DNA of 64,000 nucleotides, taken from positions 81,296 through 145,295 of the forward strand of contig CAVVFV010000003.1 of NCBI GenBank assembly GCA_963747695.1, given 5' to 3'. This stretch comes from Candidatus Falkowbacteria bacterium. GTDB lineage: Bacteria; Patescibacteriota; Patescibacteriia; Patescibacteriales; WJLG01. Position 1 is the stretch's first letter. Each line of letters begins with the position of its first letter. This document shows, piece by piece, positions 3,612-38,715 of the stretch. A model generated the notes under the pieces. That model was not told the origin of the DNA. It worked only from the letters and a program-made list of their open reading frames with translations, and did no database searches. Both the position numbers and the translations under genes were made by a program.

Positions 3612-3659
3612 ATGTTCAATTAAAAATTAAAAGTTAAAAATTAAAAATAATCCGAAATT

Positions 3660-4720: not shown

Positions 4721-4726
4721 CAAAAG

Positions 4727-4760
4727 AAAAAGACCGGCTCTTTTGGCCGGTCTTTTTATT
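4727..4760. terminator. Intrinsic terminator hairpin after tRNA-Leu, usable in both directions
   Basis: AGACCGGC (4731-4738) pairs with GCCGGTCT (4746-4753). It is flanked by an A-run on one side and a T-run on the other. Confidence 0.75.
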
Positions 4761-4874: not shown

Positions 4875-4899
4875 TTCGATTTCTCTCCATGCCCACAAA
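4875..4899 (+). repeat. Direct repeat of the tRNA-Leu 3' end (T loop to discriminator plus 4 nt)
   Basis: TTCGATTTCTCTCCATGCCCACAAA here versus TTCGATTCTCTCCATGCCCACAAA at 4701-4724; the only difference is one extra T. Confidence 0.85.
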
Positions 4900-4902
4900 T
4901 AA

Positions 4903-10700: not shown

Positions 10701-11284
10701 GAAAAAGCGATCAAGGTTTTATTCAAGAAATCCTGGCCTTCCAGTTCGGGATGATCCTGGATTTCCAGATAAAAATTATCCTGACCGAAAAGTTCGTTGT
10801 ATTCCAAAATCCTTTTCTTGGCTTTTTCCATTTGTCCAGCTTCAATCAGATGCGGGATCTCGCCGCCCATGCAGGCGGTGCAGCCGATCAGCCCGTCGTG
10901 GTATTTTTCCAATAATTCCCAATCGATTCTCGGCTTGTAATAAAAACCTTCCAAGTGCGCGGCCGAAACCAGCTTGATCAGATTTTTATAGCCTTGGTTA
11001 TTTTTAGCAAGTAACAATAAATGATGATTGGCTCGATCTTCGACCGTTTCTTTGAACATCCGGCCGCGGGGCGCCAGATAGGTTTCCACGCCGATAATCG
11101 GTTTGATCCCCTCTTTCTTACATTTTTCATAAAACTCAATCACGCCGTACATCGTGCCGTGATCGGTGATGGCGATCGCCGGCGAACCTTGCTCTTTGGC
11201 ATACTTAACCATCTCGTCGATCTTGGTCAGACCGTCGAGTAAGGAATAATGAGTATGATTGTGGAGATGGACGAAACTCATCAA
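7721..11284 (-). CDS. dnaE: DNA polymerase III alpha subunit
   Basis: 1187 aa. PHP domain start FVHLHNHTHYSLLDG, polymerase core GSGAGSLVCYLLGITNIDP and PDIDTDF, then an OB fold. A C-terminal extension of about 110 aa follows a Gly/Asn/Pro-rich linker. Confidence 0.95.
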   Translation of the reverse strand: MMSFVHLHNHTHYSLLDGLTKIDEMVKYAKEQGSPAIAITDHGTMYGVIEFYEKCKKEGIKPIIGVETYLAPRGRMFKETVEDRANHHLLLLAKNNQGYKNLIKLVSAAHLEGFYYKPRIDWELLEKYHDGLIGCTACMGGEIPHLIEAGQMEKAKKRILEYNELFGQDNFYLEIQDHPELEGQDFLNKTLIAFSQELNVPLVATNDVHYFRKDDAEAQDILLCLQNKKKVEDEDRMNMMGTDFSLRSNEEMIAAFKDIPEAAANTIKIAEMCNVEIALGQVLLPFFPVPDGFDGISYLEHLAHEGCRKRYGKIYEEMDKVRKERLDYEISVIKKMGWPSYFLIVADFINWAKDSGIIVGPGRGSGAGSLVCYLLGITNIDPIVHDLLFERFLNPERISMPDIDTDFADTGRDAVIRYVEGKYGKDHVSQIITFGTIAARASMRDVGRVLDIPYDFCDKLAKAIPMFTDLSEALENIKEFRDLYDKEPDAKKIIDYALRLEGVARHASTHACGVLITKEPLTEYVPIQYASTSDLTVVSQYSLHPIEDLGLLKMDFLGLKNLTIIESSLKIIKRTRGVDLKMDQLPLDDKLTYKLFQDGETTGVFQFESSGMKRYLKDLKPTVFEDIIAMGALYRPGPMEWIPDYIAGKHGTKKVKYLHPKLKPILDKTYGVAVYQEQVMQISRDLAGFTMGQADVLRKAMGKKIAKLLAEQKEKFVDGCVKNGVPKELGEQVFSFIEPFAGYGFCRAHAACYAMTSYQTAYLKAHYPAEFMAALLTSDQQDIDRIAIEIEECRNMGIKVLSPDVNESFASFTVVKDENSSAEFIRFGLNAIKNVGGHIVDVIIEERKANGKYRDIFDFLERIVDKDLNKKSLESLTKCGALDQFGDRGLFLANMEALLEYNKEVSRNRDSKQSSLFGNSTNNMPGRIKLDKSATVGQQEKLSWEKELLGLYLSAHPFNDFKKQLGELIVPINSLASHLNEDAVRAAGVITLIKKIITRSNKPMLFVKIEDAVASTELLVFPNLYESTVELWQEGKVVLVQGKISDKDQEVKLLVDKAAVLSLDRLAESIDDFKKIEVQAKRQFNGYGNNGNGNGMYRPNAQPAEPPPRIQPPPLKLIFKRELDPTEAAHLKELLAGATGPSLVYFKITRNNEPVIFQAGFRVRNDDNLVGAIKKEFSDSIEVVDAK

Positions 11285-11320
11285 GTAGAAAGTAAAAAGT
11301 TAAAATTAAAAAGTAAAAAA

Positions 11321-11734
11321 TCAAGTTAAATTTTTATATTCCTGTTCATATTTATTAACTACTTCTAAAATCCACTTATGTCGGAGCTTATCAGTCATTG
11401 ATTCCAGCTCTTTAAGAGACAGCCATTTCGCATCCATAATTTCATTATTCGGAACATCTAAATTACCGCCAACTATCTTTCCGGCAAAAACATGTTTGGT
11501 AACACTCGCCTTCCAAACACCAACTTTTCCAGTTAACTTCACGAAATACCCCGTCTCTTCCTTAACTTCGCGCACTGCGGCCTCCTCAGGCGTTTCATCC
11601 GGTTCTAATTTACCGGCCGGGAAATTCCAAAGTCCATAAAATTTTTCTTTTTTTTCCTGAACGAATAAATACCGGTTATTTTTTTCCAAAATGGTGGCCG
11701 CTACTGTTAGAATCTTAACAATTTCTTCCGCCAT
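11321..11734 (-). CDS. NUDIX hydrolase
   Basis: Nudix box GKLEPDETPEEAAVREVKEETGY. Confidence 0.85.
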   Translation of the reverse strand: MAEEIVKILTVAATILEKNNRYLFVQEKKEKFYGLWNFPAGKLEPDETPEEAAVREVKEETGYFVKLTGKVGVWKASVTKHVFAGKIVGGNLDVPNNEIMDAKWLSLKELESMTDKLRHKWILEVVNKYEQEYKNLT

Positions 11735-11738
11735 ATAA

Positions 11739-12161
11739 TTATACGAAGTTTTTAAAGCTTTCTTCGTATTTCATCAACGCTTCCAGGATCCAGGGTCCAC
11801 GCAATTTACCGCGCATTGATTCGATCTCCTCAAAAGAAAACCATTGGGCATCCATAATTTCATCTTCGGGAAACTTTAAATCACCGTCGGTTATTTCCAC
11901 GGCATAGGCATGCTTAACCGCGTCTTCGACTTTGTCCTGAAAAATTCCCACCTTACCGATAATTTTAACCGTATAACCCGATTCTTCCTTTGCCTCGCGT
12001 TCCGCCGCTTCCTCCAATGTTTCGCCGACATCAACCCGTCCCGCAGGAAAATTCCAAAGACCGCGTGATGGCTCTCCCTTTTCTTGAACTAATAAATACC
12101 GATAATCCTTTTCCAAAATAGCCGCCGCTACCACCGGCACTTTGATTATTTCTTTCTCCAT
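11739..12161 (-). CDS. NUDIX hydrolase, tandem paralog; start probably at the internal MEKEII
   Basis: Nudix box GRVDVGETLEEAAEREAKEESGY. It is collinear with the downstream paralog along its whole length. Confidence 0.85.
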   Translation of the reverse strand: MEKEIIKVPVVAAAILEKDYRYLLVQEKGEPSRGLWNFPAGRVDVGETLEEAAEREAKEESGYTVKIIGKVGIFQDKVEDAVKHAYAVEITDGDLKFPEDEIMDAQWFSFEEIESMRGKLRGPWILEALMKYEESFKNFV

Positions 12162-12270
12162 ATTTTTATATTCTAATAAACACAAAAAATCTCACTTTAC
12201 ATTTTGAGATTTACATTTTGCACCTTGCAAACGCCTCCTTGTCAGATACATATTATCACAAAGAAAGAAT

Positions 12271-12303
12271 AAAAAAAAGCCGCCGGATCCGGCGGCTTTT
12301 AAA
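12271..12303. terminator. Perfectly palindromic terminator hairpin
   Basis: AAAAGCCGCCGGATCCGGCGGCTTTT. Confidence 0.75.
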
Positions 12304-12310
12304 GCTAAAA

Positions 12311-12601
12311 TTACAATTTAAATATCGCTTTCATCACGCTGGCCGCGTCGGCGCGCCTTTCCTTTTCCGCGTTTTTCATCCCCCTTTTGGCCAACTCGAC
12401 GACATCCGGCCTGTTCAAAATCGGCTTCAGGCCATAATGATCAATAAGGTCTTGCAAATCGGCAACATCGCCGTTTTTAACCTCGCGCAGAAAATGCTCC
12501 AAGCCGTTTTCATCCAAACCTGTTTCTTTGCCCATTTCGGCTGCGGCTCGCTGACTTTCGCTCTGTTCCGGTTTTTCTGGTAAGACTTCAAATGAAGGCA
12601 T
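12311..12601 (-). CDS. Hypothetical protein, 96 aa, acidic
   Basis: ORF followed by a terminator. No recognisable motif. Confidence 0.45.
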   Translation of the reverse strand: MPSFEVLPEKPEQSESQRAAAEMGKETGLDENGLEHFLREVKNGDVADLQDLIDHYGLKPILNRPDVVELAKRGMKNAEKERRADAASVMKAIFKL

Positions 12602-17198: not shown

Positions 17199-18605
17199 AT
17201 GAAAAGAACGACCAATATCGCCATCTGGCTGATTTCCTTAACTATTATTTTCGGCGTGGCCAAGATTTCGTTCGCCCAGGATATCAACCCCGACTTTGAT
17301 CCGAACTATATCATCAGCGACGCGGAAATTTTTAATTATAATTCGATGGATGCCACGGACATCCAGAATTTTCTGCAGGCCAAGGGCAGCTATCTGTCCG
17401 CTTACACCGTGACCAATCCGACTGGCGTTTGTGAAACCGCCGCTCAAGCCATCTATGAAGTCTGTCAGGCCAACAAGATCAGCCCGCGTTTCGTCCTGGT
17501 GCTCTTGCAAAAAGAACAAGGCTTGATTGAAGATCCCAATCCGTCCCCGGCGAGCCTAGATTGGGCCACCGGCTATGGCTGTCCTGACGGCGGCGGCTGC
17601 AATCCGCGCTGGCAAGGTTTTTGGAAACAGATCAACAGCGCGACGCTCCAATTCTACGATTATATGGTAAATCCGCTCGAATATGCTTATCGGGCCGGTG
17701 CCACTTATACCTTTCAAAATTCCTGTTCGGCTTACAACAATCCCCCTTCCTCGATGATCACGCCTTACAATCTGGCTACGGCTGCTTTATACAATTACAC
17801 GCCGCACGTTTTTAACGGCAATTATAATTTTTACATCCTCTGGCAAAAATATTTCGCCCGCAACTACCCGGACGGGTCGCTACTCCAGATCAAGGACCAA
17901 AAAACAGTCTGGCTGATCCAGGATGGCAAGAAACGGCCCTTCGCCTCGATGAGCGTTTTGGCCTCGAGATTCGACACCAATCAGATCATTACGGTCGAAA
18001 AAGCCGATCTGGATAAATTCGGCACCAGCACGCCGATCAAATTCGCTAATTATTCATTGGTCCGCTCCCCGCACGGCACGGTTTATCTTTTGGTCGATGA
18101 CGAAAAGCGAGGTTTCACCTCCAAGGCCGTCTTTAAAAAATTCGGCTATAACCCGGCGGAAGTTGTCGCCGCGGGCTGGACTGATCTCGATTCTTATCCT
18201 GAAGGCGCGCCGCTATCCGCCACCTCCACTTATCCAACCGGCGCTTTATTGCAGGACGTAAAGACCGGCGGCGTCTATTGGGTCTATGACGGCAAAAAGG
18301 CCGCTATCGGGGATCGTGGCCTGCTCGCGTCGAGCAAATTCAAGAACAAAAAAATCATCAAATCCAACGCGGCGGAATTGGCGCAATACCCAACCACCGA
18401 CCCGATACTTTTTGGCGATGGCACGCTTTTGAGTTCACCATCCTCGCCGGCCATTTATCTCATTTATGAAGGCAAAAAAAGGCCGTTTATGTCCTCGGAT
18501 CTGCTCGCGAAACTTGGCTACAAACTTTCCAATGTCATCAAAGTCTCGCCGCAATTCCTGGCCAATTATGACAACGGCGAGGTGATAAAAGAAAACAACT
18601 TCTAA
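17199..18605 (+). CDS. Secreted protein with four C-terminal repeats of about 55 aa; hypothetical, possibly cell-wall associated
   Basis: Signal peptide MKRTTNIAIWLISLTIIFGVAKISFAQD. The repeats are WLIQDGKKRPFASMSVLASRF, YLLVDDEKRGFTSKAVFKKFGY, YWVYDGKKAAIGDRGLL and YLIYEGKKRPFMSSDLLAKLGY. Confidence 0.6.
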   Translation: MKRTTNIAIWLISLTIIFGVAKISFAQDINPDFDPNYIISDAEIFNYNSMDATDIQNFLQAKGSYLSAYTVTNPTGVCETAAQAIYEVCQANKISPRFVLVLLQKEQGLIEDPNPSPASLDWATGYGCPDGGGCNPRWQGFWKQINSATLQFYDYMVNPLEYAYRAGATYTFQNSCSAYNNPPSSMITPYNLATAALYNYTPHVFNGNYNFYILWQKYFARNYPDGSLLQIKDQKTVWLIQDGKKRPFASMSVLASRFDTNQIITVEKADLDKFGTSTPIKFANYSLVRSPHGTVYLLVDDEKRGFTSKAVFKKFGYNPAEVVAAGWTDLDSYPEGAPLSATSTYPTGALLQDVKTGGVYWVYDGKKAAIGDRGLLASSKFKNKKIIKSNAAELAQYPTTDPILFGDGTLLSSPSSPAIYLIYEGKKRPFMSSDLLAKLGYKLSNVIKVSPQFLANYDNGEVIKENNF

Positions 18606-18725
18606 AATGATACGAATACTGCGAATTATTCGCTAATACTACAAACTCCACGAAACGAATTTAAAATTCGTTAAAATGTTCGCGGTATTCGCGAAAAATT
18701 TGTAGTATTCGCATCATATTATTTT

Positions 18726-19523
18726 ATGTCGCTCAAACTCGCCGCTATCATTCCCCATCCGCCAATATTAATCCCTTCCATCGGCAAGGAAAATATTTTG
18801 CGTCTGGAAAAAACCAAGAACTCCTACAGCAAAATCGAGGAAGCGCTGATAACGGAAAAAATCGAGACGATCGTCATCATCTCTTCTCACGGACCGATCA
18901 GACAGGATGTCTGGAGCATCGATTTGGCGCCCGAGTATGAGATAAATTTTGAGGAATTCGGCGACTTTTCCACCAAGCTCAAACTGGACGGCGATCTGGA
19001 ACTGGCGCAAAACATCCGGGAAAGTCTGATCGAAAATGATAACGTCCAGGCAATCTCCGCCCCGATCCTTGACCACGGCTGCGGCGTGCCGCTTTACTCA
19101 CTACTTCTCAATCAAAAAAATATCGAAATCGTCCCGATCTATATTTCCGGAGCGAATCTTACCGAGCATTTTAATTTAGGCAAAATGATTGCGGCGAAGA
19201 TCAAGAAGGGCCGGAAAAAAATCGCCGTTTTGGCTTCCGGCGACCTGGCGCATACTTTGGAAAAGAAATCGCCGGGCGGATTTTCTTCCCGCGCCGCCAA
19301 GTTCGACCAAAAAATTATTGAATTGCTGCAAAACAAGGCGGCGGATGAATTCCTCGCGCTCGACGAGAATCTGATCGCCGAAGTCAAGCCGTGCGGACTT
19401 AGGGCGATCGCCCTGCTTTGGGGAATCCTCGGCAACGGCGGTTATGATATCGATTCGACCGCCTATGAATCCCCTTTCGGCGTCGGCTATCTGTCAATGA
19501 TTCTAAAACCTATCACAAACTAA
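18726..19523 (+). CDS. Class III extradiol dioxygenase / LigB-Memo superfamily protein
   Basis: 265 aa. N-terminal AAIIPHPPILIP and VIISSHGP resemble LigB-type catalytic subunits. Assigned by eye. Confidence 0.5.
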   Translation: MSLKLAAIIPHPPILIPSIGKENILRLEKTKNSYSKIEEALITEKIETIVIISSHGPIRQDVWSIDLAPEYEINFEEFGDFSTKLKLDGDLELAQNIRESLIENDNVQAISAPILDHGCGVPLYSLLLNQKNIEIVPIYISGANLTEHFNLGKMIAAKIKKGRKKIAVLASGDLAHTLEKKSPGGFSSRAAKFDQKIIELLQNKAADEFLALDENLIAEVKPCGLRAIALLWGILGNGGYDIDSTAYESPFGVGYLSMILKPITN

Positions 19524-19548
19524 AAACCGCCATCCGGCGGCTTTTTTA
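19522..19548. terminator. Terminator hairpin
   Basis: AAAACCGCC-ATCC-GGCGGCTTTTTT. Confidence 0.7.
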
Positions 19549-19578
19549 AATCAATTGGATCTTTTTTTACTTTCAACT

Positions 19579-19878
19579 TTATAACTTTTTACTTCTTTTC
19601 CCTTCTTCGCTGACAACTTTAAGGAAATATTTCCATTGCTCGCCGCTCTTACATAATTCCTTGGTGTCATTCAGGCATCTTTCCACGAATTCGACCGGAT
19701 AATCGCGGCAGATCTTGAAGATCGAAGCGCGCTTGAAATTCGGCACGCCTAATTCCGCCACTACCCGCAAAGCTAAATCCTGCCACGGATAAGCCGGCGG
19801 TTTTTTAACTTGGCGCCCCTTTTTCTGGATGAATATCGACCCCAGACTCTCAAATTCACCCTTTGGTACGTTTTCCAT
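19579..19878 (-). CDS. Hypothetical protein, 99 aa
   Basis: Clean ORF with no recognised motif. Confidence 0.45.
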   Translation of the reverse strand: MENVPKGEFESLGSIFIQKKGRQVKKPPAYPWQDLALRVVAELGVPNFKRASIFKICRDYPVEFVERCLNDTKELCKSGEQWKYFLKVVSEEGKRSKKL

Positions 19879-19973
19879 AATATTTGCCTTTTAGTTCATA
19901 TAATACTATAATATTTCAATAAAGATTGCAACAAAATTTTTACTTTTTACTTATTACTTTTTACTTTTTTGCG

Positions 19974-20501
19974 ATGGCTAAAGTTTTACAAATATTAACC
20001 CTGCCTGATGAAATACTGCGGAAAAAATCCGCAGTGATCGGCGAAGATCGGATTACCGCCAAGGAATTCGAAGAGCTTTGCGATGATCTGGGCGAAACGA
20101 TGATCAAAAAAGAGGGGGTGGGGTTGGCCGCGCCGCAAATCGGCCGGAATGTCCGACTGATCGTGGTTAATACCAAGAACGGCCCGGTTTTTTTATTCAA
20201 TCCCAAAATCATCAAAAAATCCTGGATCAGAGAATGGGATGAAGAGGGCTGCCTGTCCGTGCCGCTCGTCTTCGGCGATGTCCGGCGCCATAAAAAAATA
20301 ACCTGCGTCTTTTGCAACCGGCAGGGAAAAAATAGTAAAATTAAAGCTGCCGGATTCCTGGCCCGGGTTATCCAGCACGAGATCGATCACTTAGACGGCA
20401 TCTTATTCGTCGATAAGGCCAAGAATTTACACAAAATCGACGAGGCTGACGAAGAATCAGAAGTAATCCCGCCAAAGACGGGACAAGGAAGCAAAAAGTA
20501 A
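19974..20501 (+). CDS. def: Peptide deformylase
   Basis: GVGLAAPQIG, EGCLS and HEIDHLDG motifs. The start is set at MAKVLQILTLPDEILR. Confidence 0.92.
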   Translation: MAKVLQILTLPDEILRKKSAVIGEDRITAKEFEELCDDLGETMIKKEGVGLAAPQIGRNVRLIVVNTKNGPVFLFNPKIIKKSWIREWDEEGCLSVPLVFGDVRRHKKITCVFCNRQGKNSKIKAAGFLARVIQHEIDHLDGILFVDKAKNLHKIDEADEESEVIPPKTGQGSKK

Positions 20502-22571: not shown

Positions 22572-22758
22572 CTCCTCGGTTGAAATTTACTATATTTTAT
22601 AATACCGAGGAAAAAAAGTAAACAATTACGGGATTGACTGATTGATATATTTAGTTTATACTATTTACAAATCCAATTCGGATTTTATTTTATTTTTTCA
22701 GCCAGAGGCTGATCCGCCTTGGGCGGAAATTCTTAATTCTTAATTTGTAATTGATTTA

Positions 22759-22830
22759 GGTCCCTTCGTCTAACGGTTAGGACATCAGGTTCTCATCCTG
22801 AAAATAGGGGTTCGATTCCCCTAGGGACTA
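22759..22830 (+). tRNA. tRNA-Glu(CTC)
   Basis: Hand fold: acceptor GGTCCCT/AGGGACT, anticodon arm TCAGG-TTCTCAT-CCTGA, T arm AGGGG-TTCGATT-CCCCT. Confidence 0.9.
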
Positions 22831-22836
22831 CTAATT

Positions 22837-22865
22837 TAAAAACTCGGCCTTTCGCCGAGTTTTTA
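22837..22865 (+). terminator. Terminator after tRNA-Glu
   Basis: AAAAACTCGGC-CTTTC-GCCGAGTTTTT. Confidence 0.75.
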
Positions 22866-22870
22866 AATTA

Positions 22871-23034
22871 GTCATCTTCTATATTGGGAGTCGAACTGGT
22901 TGCGCGCGAGATATGAGCGCCGACGGAAGGAGGCGCGAATAATCGAGCGACGCTGACCATTCGGGGAATGGTCAGCGGGCAACCCCGGACAAGAGAGGCC
23001 GCCGCTTTTCCGGCGGCGGCCGAACACGACGACA
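22871..23034 (-). repeat. GC-rich hairpin module (copy E3) between tRNA-Glu and a duplicate of its 3' end
   Basis: Hairpins at 22952-22976 and 22998-23020. The reverse complement reads GCCGCCGGAAAAGCGGCGGCCTCTCTTGTCCGGGGT, versus GCCGCCGGAATGCGGCTCGCTCCCTTGTCCAGGGT at 37755-37789. A T-loop-like GGAGTCGAAC sits at 22888-22897. Confidence 0.65.
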
Positions 23035-23048
23035 CCCCTAGGGACTAC
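23035..23048 (+). repeat. Direct repeat of the tRNA-Glu 3' end
   Basis: CCCCTAGGGACTAC is identical to 22818-22831. Confidence 0.8.
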
Positions 23049-23056
23049 GGATAAAT

Positions 23057-23088
23057 AAAAATACTGACTTAATATGGTCAGTATTTTT
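23057..23088 (+). terminator. Second terminator, after the duplicated tRNA-Glu end
   Basis: ATACTGAC pairs with GTCAGTAT, followed by a T-run. Confidence 0.6.
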
Positions 23089-23114
23089 ATTTATATAAAC
23101 TTATTCTTAATACA

Positions 23115-31205: not shown

Positions 31206-33342
31206 AATATGCCGTATTCCCCGCTAAAATTTCATCCTTGCCGTCATGATTGATATCGGCCGCGACGACGGTGATGCCGGCGGTGGCTGTCTTATCATAG
31301 GCTAAGAATTGTGAAATCAATTTGCCGTATTTGTCCCAAACCCGGACTTGCGGTTGAGCTCCCGGACCGGCGCCGGTGATAATTTGCCGATCACTCGTCC
31401 CGTTAACATTTCCCACGGTGACCGAAACACCCGAGCGGGAATTCTGATCATAAGCGAAAAATCCGCCCAGAACTTTGCCGTTGCCGTTGAAGATCCGCAC
31501 TTGCGGACCGCCGCCGACACCGGCTCCGGTGAATATTTCATCTTTGCCGTCATTGTTATAATCGATCGCCGCCACATTTACGCCGCCGCGAAAATTCCGG
31601 TCATAGGCGAAAAAACCGCCGGAGAGCAGTCGGCCGTCGGCGCTAAAGATCCGAACTTGCGGACCGCCGCCTTTCCCGGCGCCGATCACCAATTCTTTCT
31701 GGCCGTTGCCTTGCAAATCGGCGATCGCCAAAGAAATGTCGCCTTTAAAGACTCCATTAAACGGTTTAAAGCTGGTAAGCACTTTGGTGCCGCGATAAAT
31801 CGTGATCGTCCCGTTGCTGTTTACCAGAGTTTCATCGATCTTGTCGTTGTCAATGTCGGCCGAAATTATCTGCGCGCCGCCGGGGTAGCGGCTGTCATAA
31901 GCGAAAAATCCGTTGCGGAGCTGGTTGCCTGATTGATCAAAAACGCGGAAGAACTCGCCATTTTTGAAGACCGCGTCGGTGATGATATTTTCCGTCGTGT
32001 TCCCCGAAGCAACCGGCTGAGCCGCGGCCGGCGGACTGGCCGGTGCCGGAGCGGCCGAGGCGGAAGGAATTTTCCGGCTCGAGAGATCGCCCAGTAAAAT
32101 TACCGCGTCATCGGCGGCAATGCTTACCAAATTTACTCTAGAACCGTTATTGATATTCGGATCTTGCGTGCCGCTTAATTTATTGAAAACTTCATCGGTG
32201 AAAACATAATTTTGCGTCTGATCGGTCGAATTGACGACCACGATACCATTAGTAAAATCGCGCCGCCACAAGCCTTTTTTAAAAGTCACATTATTCTTAT
32301 CCAAAATATTGATCGGCGCCGACACGGCGGTTCCTAAATCAGTAGAATATTCGTCATACCACCATGTTTGTCCGTGATTATTGACGCCGTAATCGAAAGA
32401 AAAGCTGCCGTCTCCCAACAGCGCCGACCCCAGGGAAAAACGCATTTTATGATAATCATCGATCCCCCAAGTATTATTGGTATTGGAATTGATGATGCCG
32501 ACGTAAGGATTGAGAAAATTTTTGCTATCAGCGTAAGTTTTCATCGAACCGGCCCAGGTGCCGTCCGCCTCCCAAGGCGCGGGAAAACTTTCCAGCATAA
32601 TGCCGTTAAGATACGGTTGATAAGACGGGTCGTGCCGGCTGTTGGCCACAATCAGATATTTATTTCCCAAAAGCGCCTGCGTCTTGGCGAGCATTTTTAT
32701 ATTTCCGGCCGCCCAAGCTTGATCCAGAACCGCGGCGCTGTCGGCTTTGCCGTCATTATTGCTGTCTAAATTACCGCTATTGAACCAGGAAATATTCGGC
32801 CAAACGTTATCATAAAAAACTCCGTCCCAAAGTCCGGTGGACATTACTTGGTCGTTGATGAATTGCGGCAACAGATCATTCCAGCGTTGGCCGGCCGGAG
32901 ACAAACCCGCGCCGTCAGTGATATTGAGTACTCTGGTCTGCGGCCAAAAAGAAGTAAAGTTACCGCTCTTGTCTTTCAGCCACCAGGACGGATTGATTTC
33001 GCCTTGCAGCTGGTTGCGCAATTTCGCAAAACTGGGATCCTCGGGCTTAGTGAATATCTCTTCCGAGGTGATATAAGCCAAAATAATTATCTTCGGGTTC
33101 AACTGGCGGATTTTTTTCAAATTAGCCAGGCTGTTATGCTGCACCTCCATATCCAAAACCAGAACATCCCACTTCGCCAGATTATTCACTTCCGTATCCG
33201 GAATAGACCAGTTCAAATAATAATTAGCCAACCGCGGATAATCGGTCTTGACCGTACCGGTATAAGCCGAACCGCACCAAGGCCAAACCAGAAGGCCGGC
33301 TACCGCGAATAAAAAACAAATTTTAGTGATATTATTCTTCAT
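31204..33342 (-). CDS. Secreted protein with an N-terminal putative glycoside-hydrolase-like domain and C-terminal FG-GAP/VCBS-type repeats
   Basis: It has a signal peptide and at least five repeats of the form FFAYDxxxRGGVNVAAIDxNNDGKDEI...GAGxGGGPQVRIF. The N-terminal domain call is weak. Confidence 0.6.
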   Translation of the reverse strand: MKNNITKICFLFAVAGLLVWPWCGSAYTGTVKTDYPRLANYYLNWSIPDTEVNNLAKWDVLVLDMEVQHNSLANLKKIRQLNPKIIILAYITSEEIFTKPEDPSFAKLRNQLQGEINPSWWLKDKSGNFTSFWPQTRVLNITDGAGLSPAGQRWNDLLPQFINDQVMSTGLWDGVFYDNVWPNISWFNSGNLDSNNDGKADSAAVLDQAWAAGNIKMLAKTQALLGNKYLIVANSRHDPSYQPYLNGIMLESFPAPWEADGTWAGSMKTYADSKNFLNPYVGIINSNTNNTWGIDDYHKMRFSLGSALLGDGSFSFDYGVNNHGQTWWYDEYSTDLGTAVSAPINILDKNNVTFKKGLWRRDFTNGIVVVNSTDQTQNYVFTDEVFNKLSGTQDPNINNGSRVNLVSIAADDAVILLGDLSSRKIPSASAAPAPASPPAAAQPVASGNTTENIITDAVFKNGEFFRVFDQSGNQLRNGFFAYDSRYPGGAQIISADIDNDKIDETLVNSNGTITIYRGTKVLTSFKPFNGVFKGDISLAIADLQGNGQKELVIGAGKGGGPQVRIFSADGRLLSGGFFAYDRNFRGGVNVAAIDYNNDGKDEIFTGAGVGGGPQVRIFNGNGKVLGGFFAYDQNSRSGVSVTVGNVNGTSDRQIITGAGPGAQPQVRVWDKYGKLISQFLAYDKTATAGITVVAADINHDGKDEILAGNTAY

Positions 33343-33491
33343 TATTAGCCCAGTTCATCAATAATTAAATTCCTTAGATTATAGGATTTTTTATGATTAT
33401 TGTCAATGCCAAAACGCAATAACAAAGAGCATGGAACAGAGAATATTTGTTTTGTATTTTTTGCTCTATGTTCCATGATCCTAGTTCTTGG

Positions 33492-34811
33492 TTAGCGGCA
33501 AATATTGTCCGCTTGACAAACAGTCGGCAGATAACAAGAACGGTTAGGACAACAAGCCGCGCCTTGGTAGCCGCAGGAAATCCGCTGGATAAAATCCTGG
33601 GTCGCGATGATATAGCCGTTGACGTAAGCGACGCCGATCCCCGATTCAGTAAAAGAAGATTGTAAAATATTGGCGCGATGGCCCGGGCTATTCATCCAGC
33701 CCAAAACGATATCGGAAGCCATTTCATCATTGCTCGTATAGGAAATGCCCGTCACATTGACGGTCGCTTCAGCGGCCAGCTCGGCGGCTCTTTTAACCAG
33801 CTCAGAGCTGATCAGATTAAGTTTATCCTGGGTGCTGATATTTGATTCCAAGCTCGCCTTCAGCGCGTCATTGGCGCTTTGCACCGCGGCATCGCAGCTG
33901 TCGATCGAACTTTGATCGGCCGCGCTCGAGTTGGTCGTGAAAACGATTTCCTTGCCGCCTTGCATGGCGATATTCTCCCCGGAATCGGCAAAGTAATCGA
34001 TGCCACGGGCCTTTAACCGGTCATCTTCATAAAGGCCAAAGACTAATCCTTCGTGATGGATCATAAAATAATCGCAGACTTTGTTGAGCGAGGTCAGCGG
34101 CAGATTTTCCCGAGCCAGATCCTGGCTGTGTTCCCGGGCCACTGCCGAAATATCGGGATTCCAGACTAGGGCAGTCAAGCCATTTTTGGCGCGCTCGGCA
34201 TTGACCAGGTTGTTTATTTTTTGTTCAAGATAACTCAAGTCATAAGGCGAGGCAGCGGTAAGAGGATTTGAAGCCGGCGGCAATACCGTCTGGCTTCCGG
34301 CGGCAGGCGGCAGAAAAGAAGGTGCGATATTAATTTGCGCCAGATTGGCATTGGAAATCCCCAAACCTAATTTTCTGATTACCGCGTTTATTCCGTCGAC
34401 CGTCAATAAATAATATCTGGTGCCATCAACCGGATTCACATACCAAGCCTGACCGTGGTCTTGGACTTGTAAAAAAATCTTTCCTTTGGCGGCGGCGATA
34501 AAATTCAACTGGCTTTGATTGGTAATCTTGGCCGTCGAACCGGCCAGCGGAATCCTCGCCAGATTGGCATTAGTGATCCCGATGCCGACTTGCCTGATCA
34601 CGGCAAACGGATCATCCAGCGGATAACGCTGATGATTCGCCGGATTGACATACCAGGCTTCTCCCCTATCCTGCACGGCCAAAATAATCCGTCCGGACAG
34701 ATGATTCGCCAGCGCCGAGTTAGCCGCCGCTTGCACCGGAATGACCGAATAAAAACAAAAAACCACCAATATCGCTACGGCTATTCTTTTCCCGCGTAAA
34801 ATCTTATTCAT
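33492..34811 (-). CDS. Secreted CAP/SCP (PR-1-like) domain protein with N-terminal duplicated repeats and a Cys-rich tail
   Basis: NAERAKNGL...AREHSQDLA, GENIA, GWMNSPGHRANIL and GIGVAY. The tail reads CGYQGAACCPNRSCYLPTVCQADNICR. Confidence 0.75.
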   Translation of the reverse strand: MNKILRGKRIAVAILVVFCFYSVIPVQAAANSALANHLSGRIILAVQDRGEAWYVNPANHQRYPLDDPFAVIRQVGIGITNANLARIPLAGSTAKITNQSQLNFIAAAKGKIFLQVQDHGQAWYVNPVDGTRYYLLTVDGINAVIRKLGLGISNANLAQINIAPSFLPPAAGSQTVLPPASNPLTAASPYDLSYLEQKINNLVNAERAKNGLTALVWNPDISAVAREHSQDLARENLPLTSLNKVCDYFMIHHEGLVFGLYEDDRLKARGIDYFADSGENIAMQGGKEIVFTTNSSAADQSSIDSCDAAVQSANDALKASLESNISTQDKLNLISSELVKRAAELAAEATVNVTGISYTSNDEMASDIVLGWMNSPGHRANILQSSFTESGIGVAYVNGYIIATQDFIQRISCGYQGAACCPNRSCYLPTVCQADNICR

Positions 34812-34823
34812 TGTAATATTATA

Positions 34824-36146
34824 TCACGAAGCTTTAATTTTGATTACCTGGCCAATCAGGCTTGACCCGCCATTACGCGCCGAGATGACTTGCTCCGGAT
34901 CAAAATAAACATCAAAATAATATTCAGTCTTTCCTTTCATTTTTTTTCCCTTTAATTTACCGGTGCGCGATGAGCGATTGTGTTCAACCACGACTTCTAA
35001 AATTTTTCCTCGAAATTTTTTGGCATATGCCGCGGTCAGCTCATCGCTCAATTTTCTTAGAATTTCCGATCGGCTTTTAATTTCCGGCGGATCAACTCGG
35101 CCGGGCAATTTGGCCGCGGCGGTCAGAGCATGGGGAGAAAAAGAAAAAACATGCAGCCGGCTGAATTTGATTCTCTTGATGAAATTTTCCGTTTGCTTAA
35201 AATCTTGTTTAGACTCTCCGGGGAAACCGACGATCACATCGGTGCTGATGGCGATGTCCGGCATTTTTAAGCGTAGTTTTTTTATTTTCGCGGCGAAATA
35301 TTTCAAATCATATGGCCGTTTCATTAAGCGCAAAATCTTATCGCAACCGGATTGCAGCGGAATATGCAAATGCCGGCACAGCTTCTTTTCGCCCGCCATC
35401 AAACTGATCAATTCATCGCTGACTTCAGTAATCTCAATAGAACTCAAGCGAAGGCGTGCCAAATCTTTTATTTTTACCAATTGCCGCAATAATTTCTCCA
35501 ACGTCGCTCCCCTCTCCCGATCTTTTTTATTCACGTTATTAATGCCAAAAAGTCCCAGATGAATTCCGCACAAAATTATTTCGCGATAACCTTTTTTAAC
35601 CGCGGCCTCGGCTTCGGCGATTATTTCTCCCGTCGAGCGGCTCTGCAATTTTCCCCTGGTGAAAGGGATGACGCAATAAGAACAAAATTGCTCGCAGCCG
35701 TCCTGTACTTTTAAAAAATACCTTGATCGGTTTTGATTATCGTTCGAGATGCTAAAACCATCTTCGCCTGCTAGCCGCGTTTCGTATTTCGTATTTGGTA
35801 TTTCGTACTTGGTATATTTTTTTATTTCATTTATCAACCCATCAAAATTTTTACTCTCCCAAATCAAATCTACGCCTAATTCTTTTTGGTTAATTTTTTT
35901 ATCGTCTGCTCGCGGCCAGCAGCCGGTGAGAATTATTTTAGCGCCGGGATTCTCCGCCCTGGCTTTATTGATCATCCACTTATTCTTGCTGATGGCGCCG
36001 GCGGTCACGGCACAAGTATTGATGATGGCCAGGTTCGCTCCATTTTTCGCTAAAATAAAACCGGCGGATTTTAGCAATCCGCCTAACTCGCCGCCGTCAT
36101 ATTGATTGACCTTGCAGCCTAAACTGTAAATCTTAAAACTGCGCAT
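34824..36146 (-). CDS. mtaB: tRNA methylthiotransferase, MtaB-like (radical SAM)
   Basis: KIYSLGCKVNQYD at the N-terminus, radical SAM motif GCEQFCSYCVIPFTRG, and a TRAM-like C-terminus. Confidence 0.8.
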   Translation of the reverse strand: MRSFKIYSLGCKVNQYDGGELGGLLKSAGFILAKNGANLAIINTCAVTAGAISKNKWMINKARAENPGAKIILTGCWPRADDKKINQKELGVDLIWESKNFDGLINEIKKYTKYEIPNTKYETRLAGEDGFSISNDNQNRSRYFLKVQDGCEQFCSYCVIPFTRGKLQSRSTGEIIAEAEAAVKKGYREIILCGIHLGLFGINNVNKKDRERGATLEKLLRQLVKIKDLARLRLSSIEITEVSDELISLMAGEKKLCRHLHIPLQSGCDKILRLMKRPYDLKYFAAKIKKLRLKMPDIAISTDVIVGFPGESKQDFKQTENFIKRIKFSRLHVFSFSPHALTAAAKLPGRVDPPEIKSRSEILRKLSDELTAAYAKKFRGKILEVVVEHNRSSRTGKLKGKKMKGKTEYYFDVYFDPEQVISARNGGSSLIGQVIKIKAS

Positions 36147-36148
36147 GA

Positions 36149-36220
36149 GCCGGCGAAGGGACTTGAACCCCCGACCTCCGCTTTACAAAAGCATTGCTCT
36201 ACCACTGAGCTACGCCGGCC
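36149..36220 (-). tRNA. tRNA-Thr(TGT)
   Basis: The reverse complement folds as GCCGGCG-TA-GCTC-AGTGGTA-GAGC-A-ATGCT-TTTGTAA-AGCGG-AGGTC-GGGGG-TTCAAGT-CCCTT-CGCCGGC-T. It ends 2 nt before the mtaB start codon. Confidence 0.88.
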
Positions 36221-36311
36221 TCGTACAACCATATTATCCTATATTTATCTTTTTTTCAATGAAAAAGCCGCTCGTATTTACCAAGCGGCTTTGCTGCGAC
36301 AAATCCTTTCG

Positions 36312-37547
36312 TCAATAATTACCGCACAACCCGGCCCGACTCTGTTGTCTGGCTAAACCAGCGGCGATATTGAGATATCCTTGAGAGTCACGGTGATCGA
36401 AATTACCGATCTTTTCCATCGACGCCCGGTCAGCGCTATAAAGCGATGTCGGTGAAGCCACGCGCAGCAATCTCATGTTCCCTTTATAAAGCTCAAAGGA
36501 AACCGAACCGCTGATATCTTTGGCCACGCTGGTGATATAACCGACGAGCTCTTTGCAATACGGAGCGAAGAATTCGCCGCGGTAGATCGCTTCGCCGAAT
36601 TCCGCCGATATCCGATCGAAAACTCGCCGGCGGTCGCGATCCAAAACCAGCTCTATCAATTTTGCGTAGGTCCGGCAGAGAATTGACAGTCCGGGCGATT
36701 CGTAAACTCCTCGCGACTTGATCCCGACCCGGCGATTTTCCACCACGTCGATGCCGATCCCGATACCATGCTGGCCGCCAATCGAATTCAGGGCCAAGAA
36801 AATGTCGAGTGGCTCGCGATGGTTAAGATAATGGACCGGACGACCCTCTTCAAAACCAATCGTGATCTCCGTCCCCTTGTCGGGTGCCGCCTGGGGAGAA
36901 TTTCCCATTAGAAACCGGACAAAATCGGTCGGCGTATTCAAATCCTCCAGCTTGTCCGCTTCATGGGTCAAGCCCAACAGGTTGGAGTCAGTCGAATACA
37001 GTTTTTCCAGAGTCGCCAAAACTTTCAGCCCTTTGGCCTGACAGTAGGCGATCATTTCTTTCCGTCCGCCAAAGTCCTTGAGAAATGCCTGATCCCGCCA
37101 CGGAGCATAAATTTGGAGTTCCGGAGCCAAGTGATAGACGCCAATTTCGAAACGGACTTGGTCGTTGCCTCTTCCGGTCGCGCCATGAGTGACAATTTCT
37201 ATTCCGCGTTGTTTGATTTCAGGAAGCGCCGCCTTGATCAAAGCCATGCGGGCGATGCCGGTCGTATTGAGATAACCGCCCTCATACGCGCCTTGGCCTT
37301 GAACAACCAGCAGACCGTATTCGGCCAGCAGCTTCTTCGCATCGACGAGGATCGCTTCCTCGGCGCCCGCCGCTATCATCCGGCGAACCACATCGCTCAT
37401 GTCGGTTTCTTCGGGTTGGCCCAAATCGCCGATCAAAGTCGTGACTTTCGCGCCGCGTTCTTTCAGCCAGCTGACCATCGTCGTGCTGTCCAAGCCGCCG
37501 GACACAAACGAGGCAACTCTTACGCCGTTCAAATCATAAACATTCAT
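36312..37547 (-). CDS. argG: Argininosuccinate synthase
   Basis: PP-loop SFVSGGLDSTT and HGATGRGNDQVRFE. The start is set at MNVYDL. Confidence 0.9.
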   Translation of the reverse strand: MNVYDLNGVRVASFVSGGLDSTTMVSWLKERGAKVTTLIGDLGQPEETDMSDVVRRMIAAGAEEAILVDAKKLLAEYGLLVVQGQGAYEGGYLNTTGIARMALIKAALPEIKQRGIEIVTHGATGRGNDQVRFEIGVYHLAPELQIYAPWRDQAFLKDFGGRKEMIAYCQAKGLKVLATLEKLYSTDSNLLGLTHEADKLEDLNTPTDFVRFLMGNSPQAAPDKGTEITIGFEEGRPVHYLNHREPLDIFLALNSIGGQHGIGIGIDVVENRRVGIKSRGVYESPGLSILCRTYAKLIELVLDRDRRRVFDRISAEFGEAIYRGEFFAPYCKELVGYITSVAKDISGSVSFELYKGNMRLLRVASPTSLYSADRASMEKIGNFDHRDSQGYLNIAAGLARQQSRAGLCGNY

Positions 37548-37663
37548 ACGATTCCTCCGCTTCCATTGGATTGGGTTTATTATTAAAAAATGTGCTTTCC
37601 ACACCAAACATTAACCAGATAAATTATCATAATTAGCACTATTTTGTCAAATGATTTTCTTTC

Positions 37664-38003
37664 GCCATGGGCGGCCGACGCTCGTCCCGCCGCGGCGGGA
37701 TCGTTCCCTCGCGAACTTTGTCTTGCTTCCAACCAGCACACACCTCGGTCACTCGCCGCCGGAATGCGGCTCGCTCCCTTGTCCAGGGTCAGCACCAACG
37801 TGCCCCGGCACGTTGGCGATCGCTCAGCTGTTCGCCGCTCGTTCCCTCGCGGCTCTCGCTTCGCTCCTGACCAGCGCACAAAAATTTGAAGCTTCGCTTT
37901 GTAAGGGGCCTCCGCCCCTTCCAATACCATCCCCCGAAAACAGTGGGAAACTTACGTTTCCCAAACCCTTCCTAGTTCAAATCTTGTTGGGACCCGCGCA
38001 CCA
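37664..38003 (+). repeat. Composite GC-rich structured module (copy E2, the longest), ending in an inverted copy of the tRNA-Lys 3' end
   Basis: The region is open in several frames on both strands and clearly GC-richer than its flanks. Hairpins sit at 37755-37770, 37795-37816, 37903-37920 and 37945-37962. 37975-38003 equals the tRNA-Lys T-loop-to-CCA sequence with a 5-nt insertion. Confidence 0.7.
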
Positions 38004-38038
38004 ATAAAAAATACCGCTTTTGCGGTATTTTTTATTGG
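38001..38038. terminator. Perfect 17-bp palindromic terminator shared by tRNA-Lys and module E2
   Basis: CCAATAAAAAATACCGC-TTTT-GCGGTATTTTTTATTGG. Confidence 0.75.
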
Positions 38039-38111
38039 TGCGCCCAACAAGATTTGAACTTGTGACCTTCTCCTTAAAAGGGAGCTGCTCTACCAGCTGA
38101 GCTATGGGCGC
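38036..38111 (-). tRNA. tRNA-Lys(TTT) with encoded CCA
   Basis: The reverse complement folds as GCGCCCA-TA-GCTC-AGCTGGTA-GAGC-A-GCTCC-CTTTTAA-GGAGA-AGGTC-ACAAG-TTCAAAT-CTTGT-TGGGCGC-A-CCA. Confidence 0.9.
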
Positions 38112-38149
38112 GAACTTATTGATCAGATTTTACTTTTCTTATATTTTCA

Positions 38150-38226
38150 AGCGACACTACTCTACCCGCCTCGCTGAAGGCGGACCAGCTGCTTACCCCG
38201 CCCTTTTGGCGGGGAGCTATGGGCGC
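38150..38226 (-). pseudogene. Decayed copy of the tRNA-Lys 5' part, interrupted by two GC hairpins
   Basis: GAGCTATGGGCGC at 38214-38226 is identical to 38099-38111. The minus strand reads GCGCCCATAGCTC-[CCCCGCC..GGCGGGG]-..AGCTGGT-[CCGCC..GGCGG]-GTAGAG. No anticodon arm or T arm follows. Confidence 0.6.
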
Positions 38227-38299
38227 TCGACGATTTTAGATTGGCGATTTTCGATTTACGATTAAGTTTACTTGTTATTAATAATAACAAAAAAGGCGG

Positions 38300-38686
38300 A
38301 AAATAAAAACGCCTGCACCAGGCACGTTTTATTTAAGAAAATCATAACAAATAACCGGCAACTTGACAAGTGGGCGGGTAAAATTAAAGCCCGCGCGCAA
38401 TTACGCAATAAATGAAAAGGAACCCGGTAGAGTAAGGGTTCCTTGACGTAGAGATGATGAATTGGCAAAAGAGCGATTGTGATGAAGGTGCGAATTTTGA
38501 AAAAAACGAGCGAGGAAAAAGCGGCTCATCAGACACTTTAAAGAATGGAACAGAAAAATACGAACAATAACTGAAACGGAAACGGATCAGCGCAATACAA
38601 GGAACTGAACTGATCCAGCCTTAATACTCGAACTACCGCTCAACCCCTCGCTCGTTCAAAAAAGGTGCGCCGGATGAAGTGTCTAT
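38300..38686 (-). ncRNA. Candidate structured non-coding RNA or long tRNA-Lys leader, family unknown
   Basis: A promoter lies at 38687-38715. A long-range helix pairs GAACGAGCGAGG (38645-38656) with CCTCGCTCGTT (38506-38516), followed by a U-run. Further hairpins sit at 38419-38442 and 38598-38626. A terminal terminator lies at 38309-38335. There is no credible ORF. Confidence 0.45.
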
Positions 38687-38715
38687 ATTATACCTCGGTC
38701 GACCGATTAGTTCAA
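38687..38715 (-). promoter_or_regulatory. Near-consensus promoter (TTGAAC-17 nt-TATAAT) overlapping the msrA stop codon
   Basis: The minus strand reads cTTGAACtaatcggtcgaccgaggTATAATatagac. Confidence 0.6.

Follow-up and report, generated by a model that had tools for sequence, protein, structure and literature searches.

Introduction

Why should an intact transfer RNA (tRNA) gene sit inside a long palindrome, with a GC-rich block that resembles no gene on one side and a broken copy of its own 5′ half on the other? The tRNA-Lys gene in a 64,000-nt stretch of DNA from a Candidatus Falkowbacteria bacterium (Patescibacteriota; GenBank assembly GCA_963747695.1, contig CAVVFV010000003.1, positions 81,296–145,295), hereafter the window, raises this question. 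A preliminary description, made from the letters alone, had proposed that small GC-rich hairpins and larger modules were repeatedly inserted into, or copied around, this gene. We found every sequence feature which that description listed again in the window. Beyond these, we observed a common layout beside several tRNA genes, its presence at some sites and absence from others, a stack of copies at tRNA-Lys and a relic of an older tRNA allele. The best reading of the locus is that scars of repeated insertions surround an intact tRNA-Lys, which is then no one-off oddity, and we lean towards the explanation that they were left by non-autonomous selfish elements that insert in the T-loop, between nt 53 and 54, and leave a working tRNA behind. 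The element family seems to be undescribed so far.

Results

The 3′ end of an intact tRNA-Lys gene lies in a palindrome

ARAGORN placed an intact tRNA-Lys(UUU) gene with anticodon TTT and an encoded CCA on the minus strand at 38036–38111, and Rfam assigned 38039–38111 to the tRNA family RF00005 with 72.1 bits (threshold 29), in agreement with the gene as first described. ARAGORN reported this gene, tRNA-Leu and tRNA-Glu in the window as uninterrupted. The palindrome noted earlier at the end of tRNA-Lys (17 bp, 38001–38038) proved longer, with perfect 22-nt arms (37996–38017 and 38022–38043) around a 4-nt loop; the longest inverted-repeat arm in 60 shuffles was 12 nt. It is composed of the last 8 nt of the tRNA, a hairpin with a GC core flanked by A/T, and the mirror image of these. 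A second pair of perfect arms, 18 nt long (37974–37991 and 38043–38060), was returned by the same repeat finder, and because the two pairs are interrupted solely by ACCCG (37992–37996) in the left arm, the T-loop-to-CCA segment of tRNA-Lys lies inside a palindrome of ~87 nt centred on the A/T-flanked GC hairpin. The far arm, at 37974–38003 on the plus strand, is an inverted copy of tRNA-Lys nt 53–76, comprising the T-loop, the 3′ strands of the T-stem and acceptor stem, and CCA, with ACCCG as a 5-nt bulge; the inverted copy with a 5-nt insertion was already part of the preliminary description. Following the direction of the tRNA, we refer to the terminator-like palindrome as term1, to the inverted T-loop piece as inv and to a displaced direct copy as DR.

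Inspected by eye, the central hairpin reads ACCGC-TTTT-GCGGT with runs of A6 and T6 at its flanks. We read this combination of a GC core (ACCGC/GCGGT) with A and T runs as a putative bidirectional terminator. The central palindrome was not among the sites returned by a consensus terminator scan, presumably since pairing of the A/T runs lengthens the stem. At the orthologous tRNA-Lys locus of a relative (L029), the homologous hairpin differs by changes that are mirrored in both arms.

Since assemblers often err at palindromes and repeats, the whole arrangement might be an assembly chimera. A separately assembled Logan contig (L001, from ERR11748453) covers window positions 32312–38099 and is 100% identical to them through the GC-rich block, the palindrome and 64 nt of the tRNA, which is most of the gene. 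This contig stops at 38099, where a 13-nt repeat starts, and the pseudo 5′ half (38150–38226) lies outside it. The layout is moreover repeated in at least six independent assemblies from different samples, and we regard a chimera as hardly credible.

The same layout recurs beside other tRNA genes

Of the four tRNA genes in the window, those for Lys, Leu and Glu carry a common layout, as do several in related Patescibacteria; the only window tRNA gene lacking it is tRNA-Thr, which abuts a gene. Along the tRNA, the intact gene is followed by term1, inv, a core on the opposite strand and a DR of nt 54–76, after which comes the locus's own sequence, often with a second terminator. The inv piece holds the T-loop and a variable share of the tRNA 3′ end. 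The inverted tRNA 3′ half seen first at tRNA-Lys is therefore real, but it is a constant part of the layout and no stray copy.

The cores fall into two families, A and B. An A-type element follows tRNA-Leu(caa) (4637–4721) at 4722–4900 on the plus strand, with term1, inv GGAGAATCGAAC (4769–4780) and core A (4781–4857), then GTCGCTGGCGCTCC (reverse complement), an exact displaced 3′ end at 4873–4897 and a second terminator. A B-type element follows tRNA-Glu(ctc) (22759–22831) at 22832–23048 on the plus strand, with term1, inv GGGAGTCGAAC (22886–22896), core B (22897–23034) and the displaced 3′ end CCCCTAGGGACTAC (23035–23048). At tRNA-Glu, inv and the displaced copy both read CGAC where the tRNA has CGAT, so that the arms are closer to each other than to the tRNA.

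Scanning public genome collections with an 18-mer from core A gave 23 matches, of which 22 were chance and only one, in a Patescibacteria metagenome-assembled genome (L012), was real. A metagenome scan with a degenerate 21-mer returned four loci, three of them real metagenome contigs (L025, L027 and L028) and one chance (L026), while scanning a covariance model of core A (R1) over 203 kb of related loci revealed zero new copies. L025 and L027 appear to be distant from the window genome, a common ABC ATPase being just 47% identical in amino acids.

Core A was found beside tRNA-Leu, tRNA-Ser(tga), tRNA-Arg(ccg) (two loci), tRNA-Arg(gcg) and tRNA-Lys, with nearly constant spacing. Measured from the tRNA 3′ end, inv starts at +44 to +52 nt at Leu, Ser(tga), Arg(ccg) and Arg(gcg) and at +45 at Lys, and the DR starts at +160 to +164, or at ~+180 in two L028 copies with a 20-nt GC hairpin in hairpin 1 of the core. 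At tRNA-Glu an inv with one mismatch lies 57 nt past the tRNA and the DR at +204. The repeats are exact at Leu, Glu, Ser and Arg; at Lys the DR is too decayed for an exact-match scan. The repeated tRNA segment is ~13–23 nt long and ends at the tRNA 3′ end.

In each case the flanks follow the neighbouring gene. Their T-loop 7-mers match the local tRNA (TTCAAAT at Lys, TTCGAAT at Ser, TTCGATT at Arg and Leu), and a core B copy in L025 is flanked by pieces derived from tRNA-Ser(gct). Two L028 elements (L028a and L028b) have a common hairpin insert and near-identical terminators, whose differences are mirrored in both arms, and their flanks fit two different tRNA-Arg genes. Read along the core strand, nt 76 back to 54 make up the left flank and G53 is the first base of the right one, which places the junction at 53/54. 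Every A-type DR has an extra base between nt 60 and 61, and bulges are one-sided, occurring solely on the inverted arm (ACCCG, ACCCTG, CT).

These regularities bear on two other explanations. In one, there is no mobile element: local fold-back or template-switch errors at a palindromic terminator made the repeats, and the cores grew in place. Both flanks always fit the local tRNA, changes in the terminator arms are mirrored, and the order antisense–core–sense–terminator–antisense is, by our reasoning, what two template switches between inverted repeats should give. Yet the cores, 77–137 nt long, are homologous between unrelated tRNA loci and genomes (94–95% identity), which implies spread and not an origin on the spot, and the constant extra base in all A-type displaced copies points to common descent or a common mechanism. 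We therefore consider a purely local origin quite improbable.

In the other, the elements are the collapsed attL/attR ends of integrase islands or prophages that lost their genes. Islands that integrate at tRNA genes restore the gene, duplicate its 3′ segment as direct repeats and stack up at a single tRNA, and this classic signature is found here; a restriction-modification cassette also adjoins the solo core of L012. Independent deletions are not expected to yield equal spacing (+44–52 and +160) across tRNAs and genomes, however, and an integrase normally has a single target, whereas one core is found here at five or more tRNA species. No integrase or phage gene lies nearby in the ~280 kb of related DNA examined, and viral contigs, phage records and plasmid records gave no match to the cores. 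Collapsed islands thus appear an unlikely source.

The L012 locus has features of its own. Its solo core A (300–750) has its own terminator, no tRNA within 8 kb and further GC hairpins nearby, and it is adjoined at 749–3262 by a cassette of Vsr, HNH and cytosine-methylase genes. The flanks of this core derive from a tRNA with the T-stem GTCGG/CCGAC, and a 9-nt insert replaces the single extra base.

The GC-rich block is a stack of three element copies

The GC content reaches 0.61–0.69 over 37650–37900, compared with 0.32–0.44 in the flanks and a window mean of 0.465. The segment 37664–37975 had been called GC-richer than its surroundings and devoid of any protein-like pattern, and our results agree: neither Pfam nor NCBIfam matched any of the three open reading frames (ORFs) across the block (118, 115 and 81 aa), and Pfam and Rfam yielded no known gene or RNA family for the segment. 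The notion of one 340-nt module fared less well. A module is present, but it is not one unit, and resolves into three element copies and a decayed displaced tRNA 3′ end.

Nearest the tRNA, at 37897–37973 on the plus strand, lies core A, which consists of hairpin 1 (11 bp), the conserved C-rich linker CCAATACCATCCCCCGAAAAC and hairpin 2 (7–8 bp). Self-BLAST matched 37897–37968 to 4857–4786, just downstream of tRNA-Leu(caa), at 85% and in equivalent orientation. This core scores 99.6 bits with the R1 model, and as DNA it folds with z = −3.2, forming both hairpins and a closing stem from the flanks. Beyond it, at 37871–37891 (plus strand), is the decayed DR of tRNA-Lys nt 54–76 (reverse complement), which retains the T-loop 7-mer ATTTGAA intact and shows, as does the rest of the family, an additional base between nt 60 and 61. 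The repeat finder located this DR, and its register, equal to that of the other A copies, was assigned by eye, as a MAFFT alignment loses register there.

Farther out, a full but decayed copy of core B (B1, 37743–37870, plus strand) aligns with the cores B of tRNA-Glu and L025. Its second hairpin (CCAACGTGCC/GGCACGTTGG) is unlike the other copies in sequence, yet a hairpin is found at this place in all. A partial copy, the 3′ half of core B (B2, 37664–37742, plus strand), was recognized from internal repeats and the alignment and would be the oldest layer; it adjoins the −35 box of a promoter-like site of argG (37650–37623, minus strand). The folds of B1 (z = −1.3) and B2 (z = −0.45) are no more stable than those of shuffled sequences. 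Cores A and B appear to share a segment GTCGCT...CGCNCC, located at opposite ends. The order B2, B1, A, with the newest beside the tRNA, agrees with a series of insertions, each of which regenerated the target site, and the palindromes expected between the stacked layers have presumably gone by deletion.

Empty sites, an allele relic and conserved hairpins in relatives

The idea of repeated insertion or copying put forward in the preliminary description gained support from the recurrence of core families A and B at other tRNAs, and comparison of orthologous loci, some of which are without modules, adds to it. In three sister genomes (L033, L034 and L035) the tRNA-Glu gene adjoining Fmt has an identical tRNA 3′ end but no core B, and these are empty sites. 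For tRNA-Arg(gcg), L027 is empty and L028 filled, although the L027 site is in another gene context and the comparison is not a clean one. The orthologous tRNA-Lys locus in L029, identified by an ArgG 67% identical and by conserved synteny, retains the homologous terminator and a decayed inverted T-loop, but of core A just the 3′ half is present. Core B, the pseudo 5′ half and the GC-rich stretch are all missing from it.

At the orthologous tRNA-Leu loci L040 and L041 the element has a diverged core (A2), in which paired changes maintain both hairpins, and the term1 sequences are unrelated among the window, L040 and L041. The DR of L041 carries CCCAC, the T-stem allele found in the working tRNA-Leu of L039, whereas the working tRNA of L041 and its inv carry CTCTC. 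The DR is thus a relic of the resident allele, and the present 3′ part and inv arrived together. The Leu core of the window is 94–95.5% identical to the cores in L025 and L027, and those of L040 and L041, though orthologous, are clearly more diverged, so that core similarity does not track genome relatedness. Separately, the tRNA-Arg(gcg) gene beside an A element in L028 (872–944) has an A3–C70 acceptor mismatch where the element-free L027 copy has A3–T70, a difference that would be consistent with a foreign origin of the 3′ part.

Both hairpins of core A are retained through paired changes. Hairpin 2 occurs as GGGGAAC/GTTCCCC, GGGAAAC/GTTTCCC, GGGAACC/GGTTCCC and AGGGGAAA/TTTCCCCT; in hairpin 1 a T–A pair is swapped for C–G, and L040 and L041 have lost 2 bp from both strands. 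The cores fold as DNA with z between −3.2 and −6.4, and G–T pairs in the closing stem are tolerated on the core strand only. A elements are kept at orthologous loci over deep splits, at Leu (window, L040 and L041), Lys (window and L029) and Arg(ccg) (L027 and L028). Folding a transcript that reads through from tRNA-Lys to the end of the DR gives −118 kcal/mol (z = −10), with a long hairpin that replaces the T arm and the acceptor 3′ strand, and the Leu locus folds similarly. That a read-through transcript sequesters the tRNA-Lys 3′ end is therefore plausible, as far as the predicted fold can tell; the terminator-like hairpin precedes the inverted copy in the read-through direction.

Such structures could also belong to a functional RNA element of the host, either a convergent small RNA that ends at the shared terminator, with a 5′ end antisense to the tRNA 3′ end and a 3′ end that mimics it, or a switch in the 3′ trailer, in which inv pairs with the tRNA 3′ end and blocks maturation or pairs with the displaced copy and frees the tRNA. 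The paired changes, the conserved C-rich linker, the persistence at orthologous loci and the very stable read-through fold that takes in the T arm would suit this, as would the restriction of G–T pairs to the core strand, the solo core in L012 with its own terminator and no tRNA, and the symmetric A/T-flanked palindromes, which could stop transcription from either side. At Leu and Glu, however, the second terminator abuts the DR, so the core strand has no room for a promoter, and at Lys a scan detected no promoter-like site upstream of core A, the sites there being that of argG and one upstream of the pseudo half. The empty tRNA-Glu sites in sister genomes, the decayed B copies at Lys and the half core in L029 are likewise at odds with a host function. 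Rfam, too, offers no family: over the whole window at gathering thresholds it returned tRNAs only, and at permissive E-values (E ≤ 10 or E ≤ 1) over 37500–38450 and 22650–23110 tRNAs and sub-threshold noise. A host RNA element consequently seems to us fairly unlikely.

Several other identities were considered and rejected. A tmRNA-like, Y-RNA-like or other tRNA-like RNA gene has no Rfam support and would lack a T-arm stem; a group I intron does not agree with continuous tRNAs and the absence of an Rfam intron match at the same permissive E-values. The guide RNA of a TnpB or IscB nuclease is contradicted by the lack of a nuclease gene, a constant adjacent motif and a promoter, and by a core of two plain hairpins. 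An IS110 bridge RNA would have internal loops, which are missing, and the one IS110-type gene (in L037) is not beside a core; IS110 insertion also leaves its target unrestored. The junctions do not fit IS200/IS605 or IS91 elements, and a retroviral-type primer-binding site fails for want of a reverse transcriptase and on geometry. A miniature inverted-repeat transposable element (MITE) is a poor match as well, since the inverted ends here follow the local tRNA and are thus derived from the target, and the repeat of ~13–23 nt ends at the tRNA 3′ end. By eye we saw no domain V-like features of a group II intron fragment, and no group II introns are reported in the phylum (PMC13011429).

A displaced 5′ fragment and GIY-YIG genes

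On the other side of tRNA-Lys, the preliminary description had pointed to a second, hairpin-interrupted copy of the 5′ half of the gene. This displaced fragment, at 38160–38226 on the minus strand, was identified by repeat, collinearity and fold, and comprises nt 1–13 (38214–38226), a first GC hairpin with TAAGC (38191–38214), nt 14–20 as AGCTGGT (38184–38190), a second GC hairpin (38166–38183) and GTAGAG (38160–38165), in which AGAG represents nt 21–24. The exact 13-nt repeat GAGCTATGGGCGC, at 38099–38111 and 38214–38226, is borderline when taken alone (shuffle maximum 12). Once the hairpins (38196–38214 with TAAGC, and 38166–38183) are removed, what is left reads GCGCCCATAGCTC/AGCTGGT/GTAGAG and is collinear with nt 1–24 of the tRNA, with the GT of nt 19–20 occurring twice, once before and once after the second hairpin. 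An AT-rich spacer of 48 nt (38112–38159, minus strand) separates the fragment from the intact gene.

In relatives this spacer position is occupied by an ORF for a GIY-YIG endonuclease, and hairpin-interrupted 5′ fragments recur beside such genes, which further strengthens the case for repeated insertion. L027 (3305–3739) has, in order, tRNA-Ser(gct) nt 1–14, a GC double hairpin of 50 nt, nt 15–21, a GIY-YIG ORF of 86 aa (3385–3645) and an intact tRNA-Ser, and is thereby the protein-coding equivalent of the pseudo 5′ half in the window; in L035 and L037, GIY-YIG ORFs lie between tRNA-Glu fragments and an intact tRNA-Glu, and L037 also has an old tRNA-Thr (18520–18800, minus strand) broken after nt 24, as in the window fragment. 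A tblastn search of the window for a GIY-YIG gene found no match, and an endonuclease ORF was never seen with 3′-side A or B elements among the copies found. We read the window fragment as the probable fossil of a GIY-YIG-type event of the kind known in relatives.

L037 displays further rearrangements. In its tRNA-Thr cassette a complete new tRNA-Thr lies between perfect 14-bp inverted repeats (TCCCGCACCTTTTT and AAAAAGGTGCGGGA), with nt 37–76 of the old gene next to it, and an IS110-type transposase gene (19235–20464, minus strand) is situated ~450 nt upstream. At 11690–12420 (minus strand), three successive tRNA-Glu pieces surround a GIY-YIG ORF and a complete, different tRNA-Glu: nt 1–22 with two hairpins, nt 1–42 with a 30-nt insert at 35/36, and nt 29–76 with the same insert. 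This looks like repeated gene replacement.

How the locus may have been built

We suggest that each insertion of an element would leave a functional tRNA and shift the old tRNA segment outward. Along the tRNA, the resulting unit would consist of nt 54–76, a bidirectional terminator, inverted nt 76 back to 53, the core and the displaced resident nt 54–76, its first three items making up the ~87-nt palindrome. Three serial insertions could have built the GC-rich block, A being the newest and lying at the tRNA, and B1 and B2 being older, farther away and decayed, with their own palindromes lost. On the 5′ side, an earlier event may have displaced nt 1–24, with the slot for a GIY-YIG gene reduced to the present 48-nt spacer, and GC mini-hairpins would then have entered the D-loop of the dead 5′ fragment.

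Two routes to such insertions can be imagined. A site-specific recombinase might act on a folded hairpin that mimics the T-arm duplex, in which case strand exchange would take place between the tRNA gene and a hairpin of nt 54–76, terminator and inverted copy, with the GTT triplet at the stem base as the junction. Judged from geometry only, a single strand exchange on the hairpin would yield the observed layout, and the one-sided bulges would mark the strand. The main alternative would be endonuclease-triggered repair with co-conversion, a route in keeping with the relic in L041 and with the GIY-YIG genes that relatives carry.

Several points weigh against selfish insertion at 53/54. The number of copies compared is small (nine full A, one partial A and four B). 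In the ~280 kb of related DNA examined, Pfam assigned the neighbouring genes to housekeeping families only, no integrase or other recombinase, transposase or reverse transcriptase was found beside A or B copies, and none of the copies found carries an ORF. If an element-borne 3′ end moved to another tRNA, the result would be a mismatched and probably lethal tRNA, yet near-identical cores are found at Leu, Ser and Arg genes alike, and none of the mechanisms tested would give two arms fitted to each new target. Structure-preserving persistence at orthologous loci fits a function in the host or as a cis-acting RNA as well. Finally, inv at Lys matches the tRNA at 26 of 26 positions despite the age of the element, which suggests selection on the arms or their homogenization and not neutral decay.

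The matching of both arms to each target also invites a bolder proposal, which we find possible but doubtful: that A and B form a new class of tiny, non-autonomous, structure-defined mobile elements directed to T-loop position 53/54 of many tRNAs, whose arms are rebuilt from the target. The terminator hairpin might prime a copying reaction by fold-back or template switching, or the arms might be rebuilt through recombination at a folded hairpin resembling the T-arm duplex. If this were true, the mechanism would target tRNAs generally and never break the tRNA, unlike integrases, transposases and introns.

Small GC hairpins and neighbouring sequence

GC mini-hairpins recur in the loops of hairpins, one of them in the D-loop of the window 5′ fragment. 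This D-loop shares its CCTGCC...GGCAGG hairpin with the L028 cores, where it lies within hairpin 1, and with L039, where it occupies the T-loop of a tRNA-Leu fragment. The L039 fragment is a T-arm copy 15 nt past tRNA-Leu (11520–11585, minus strand) whose T-loop holds the hairpin CCTGCCTGCCGGCAGG, of the same family as that in the L028 cores; next to it is a 114-aa ORF (11141–11485, minus strand) with no Pfam or NCBIfam match. A GC double hairpin of ~30 nt, CAGCCNNNGGCTGA plus TCCGCC..GGCGGA, is present at window 22699–22727, L037 15757–15785 and L039 8292–8320, and again at L037 ~11740–11770 and ~12130–12160. It is either free-standing between TTAATTCTTT and AAATTCTTAA-like flanks or inserted in tRNA-Glu anticodon loops at 35/36, and looks like a small mobile element.

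Upstream of the 5′ fragment, the window contains a promoter-like TTGTCA-17-TATGAT with TG (38309–38369, minus strand), followed at once by a terminator-like hairpin, both conserved in L029. The stretch 38380–38700 (plus strand) is strongly purine-rich, with an AT skew of up to 0.64 and no convincing gene (minus-strand ORFs of 50–66 aa), and could be a non-coding RNA or leader. In L029, ~1.5 kb between dnaB and tRNA-Lys (8215–9700) contains several GC hairpins and, as called ORFs, only tiny ones.

Discussion

Taken together, we infer that the elements beside tRNA-Lys, tRNA-Leu and tRNA-Glu moved in trans and have no host function. If insertion by such elements is confirmed, it would explain the GC-rich, ORF-like non-coding blocks and the tRNA fragments beside Patescibacteria tRNA genes, both of which mislead gene callers and assemblers. 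It would also mean that the tRNA genes of reduced genomes are repeatedly attacked by selfish elements that are harmless through restoration of the tRNA. The near-identical cores at Leu, Ser, Arg and Lys, with flanks matched to each tRNA, suggest universal recognition of the T-loop, the remainder being copied from the target; if real, target selection of this kind would be new. A copy that carries an ORF should disclose the enzyme, and the cores provide a defined search target.

Among known systems, tRNA-integrating islands and cis-mobilizable elements (CIMEs) are alike in that their inserts are bounded by a direct repeat of the tRNA from T-loop to 3′ end, they leave a complete gene and their presence varies among relatives; new inserts land beside the working tRNA, and older ones come to lie farther out. 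They differ in that the elements here are only ~110–220 nt long, have no genes and no integrase seen with them, and use one core for at least six tRNA species. Each copy here, in addition, has an extra inverted T-arm copy, in a palindrome with the tRNA end, and a conserved hairpin core.

Integron attC sites and the attP(+) hairpin of CTX phage, used by XerCD, are folded single-strand recombination sites. They resemble the elements in keeping structure over sequence, in bulges confined to one side of an imperfect palindrome (ACCCG, ACCCTG, CT and the extra T) and in a junction at a GTT/AAC triplet (G53|T54 T55); a single hairpin strand exchange predicts, in order, the left part of the target, one arm, the rest of the element, the other arm, the loop and the right part of the target. 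Against this, the T-loop sequence GTTCRAW departs from the attC core GTTRRRY, no recombinase was identified, the junction lies beside the core and not at an integron-like R box, and the target is a tRNA gene instead of attI or dif.

Free-standing homing endonuclease genes can bring in a copy of the end of their host gene and displace the resident end, as in the endonuclease insertion at atp6 in Allomyces mitochondria, and GC-rich double-hairpin elements occur near such insertions. The likenesses here are the L041 relic, in which a displaced gene end lies beside a gene with a foreign end, the small GIY-YIG ORFs between tRNA fragments and intact tRNAs in relatives, and the GC single and double hairpins in relics and elsewhere. 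In contrast, the host here is bacterial, the targets are tRNAs, the A and B copies are without an endonuclease gene, and the inverted T-arm copy is peculiar to them. MITEs and the repetitive extragenic palindromes known as REPs and REPINs are also short, non-coding, multi-copy sequences with hairpins and inverted ends; here, by contrast, the inverted ends copy the neighbouring tRNA, insertion is confined to one tRNA position, and the repeat of ~22 nt ends at the tRNA 3′ end.

Our literature search found nothing resembling the downstream elements, and the only relevant paper concerned group I introns in Patescibacteria tRNA genes, including introns at anticodon-loop position 35/36 (PMC13011429); the words 'T-loop', 'duplicat' and 'pseudogene' were not found in its main text. 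These introns share with the elements the phylum and the use of tRNAs as hotspots, and 35/36 is the site of the double hairpin in the tRNA-Glu fragments of L037. The elements, however, lie downstream of uninterrupted Lys, Leu and Glu tRNAs and have no Rfam intron match. Selfish DNA that targets tRNA genes and restores its target is thus a kind already known; what sets these elements apart is that they are tiny, keep a conserved structure, carry an inverted T-arm copy and use many tRNA species.

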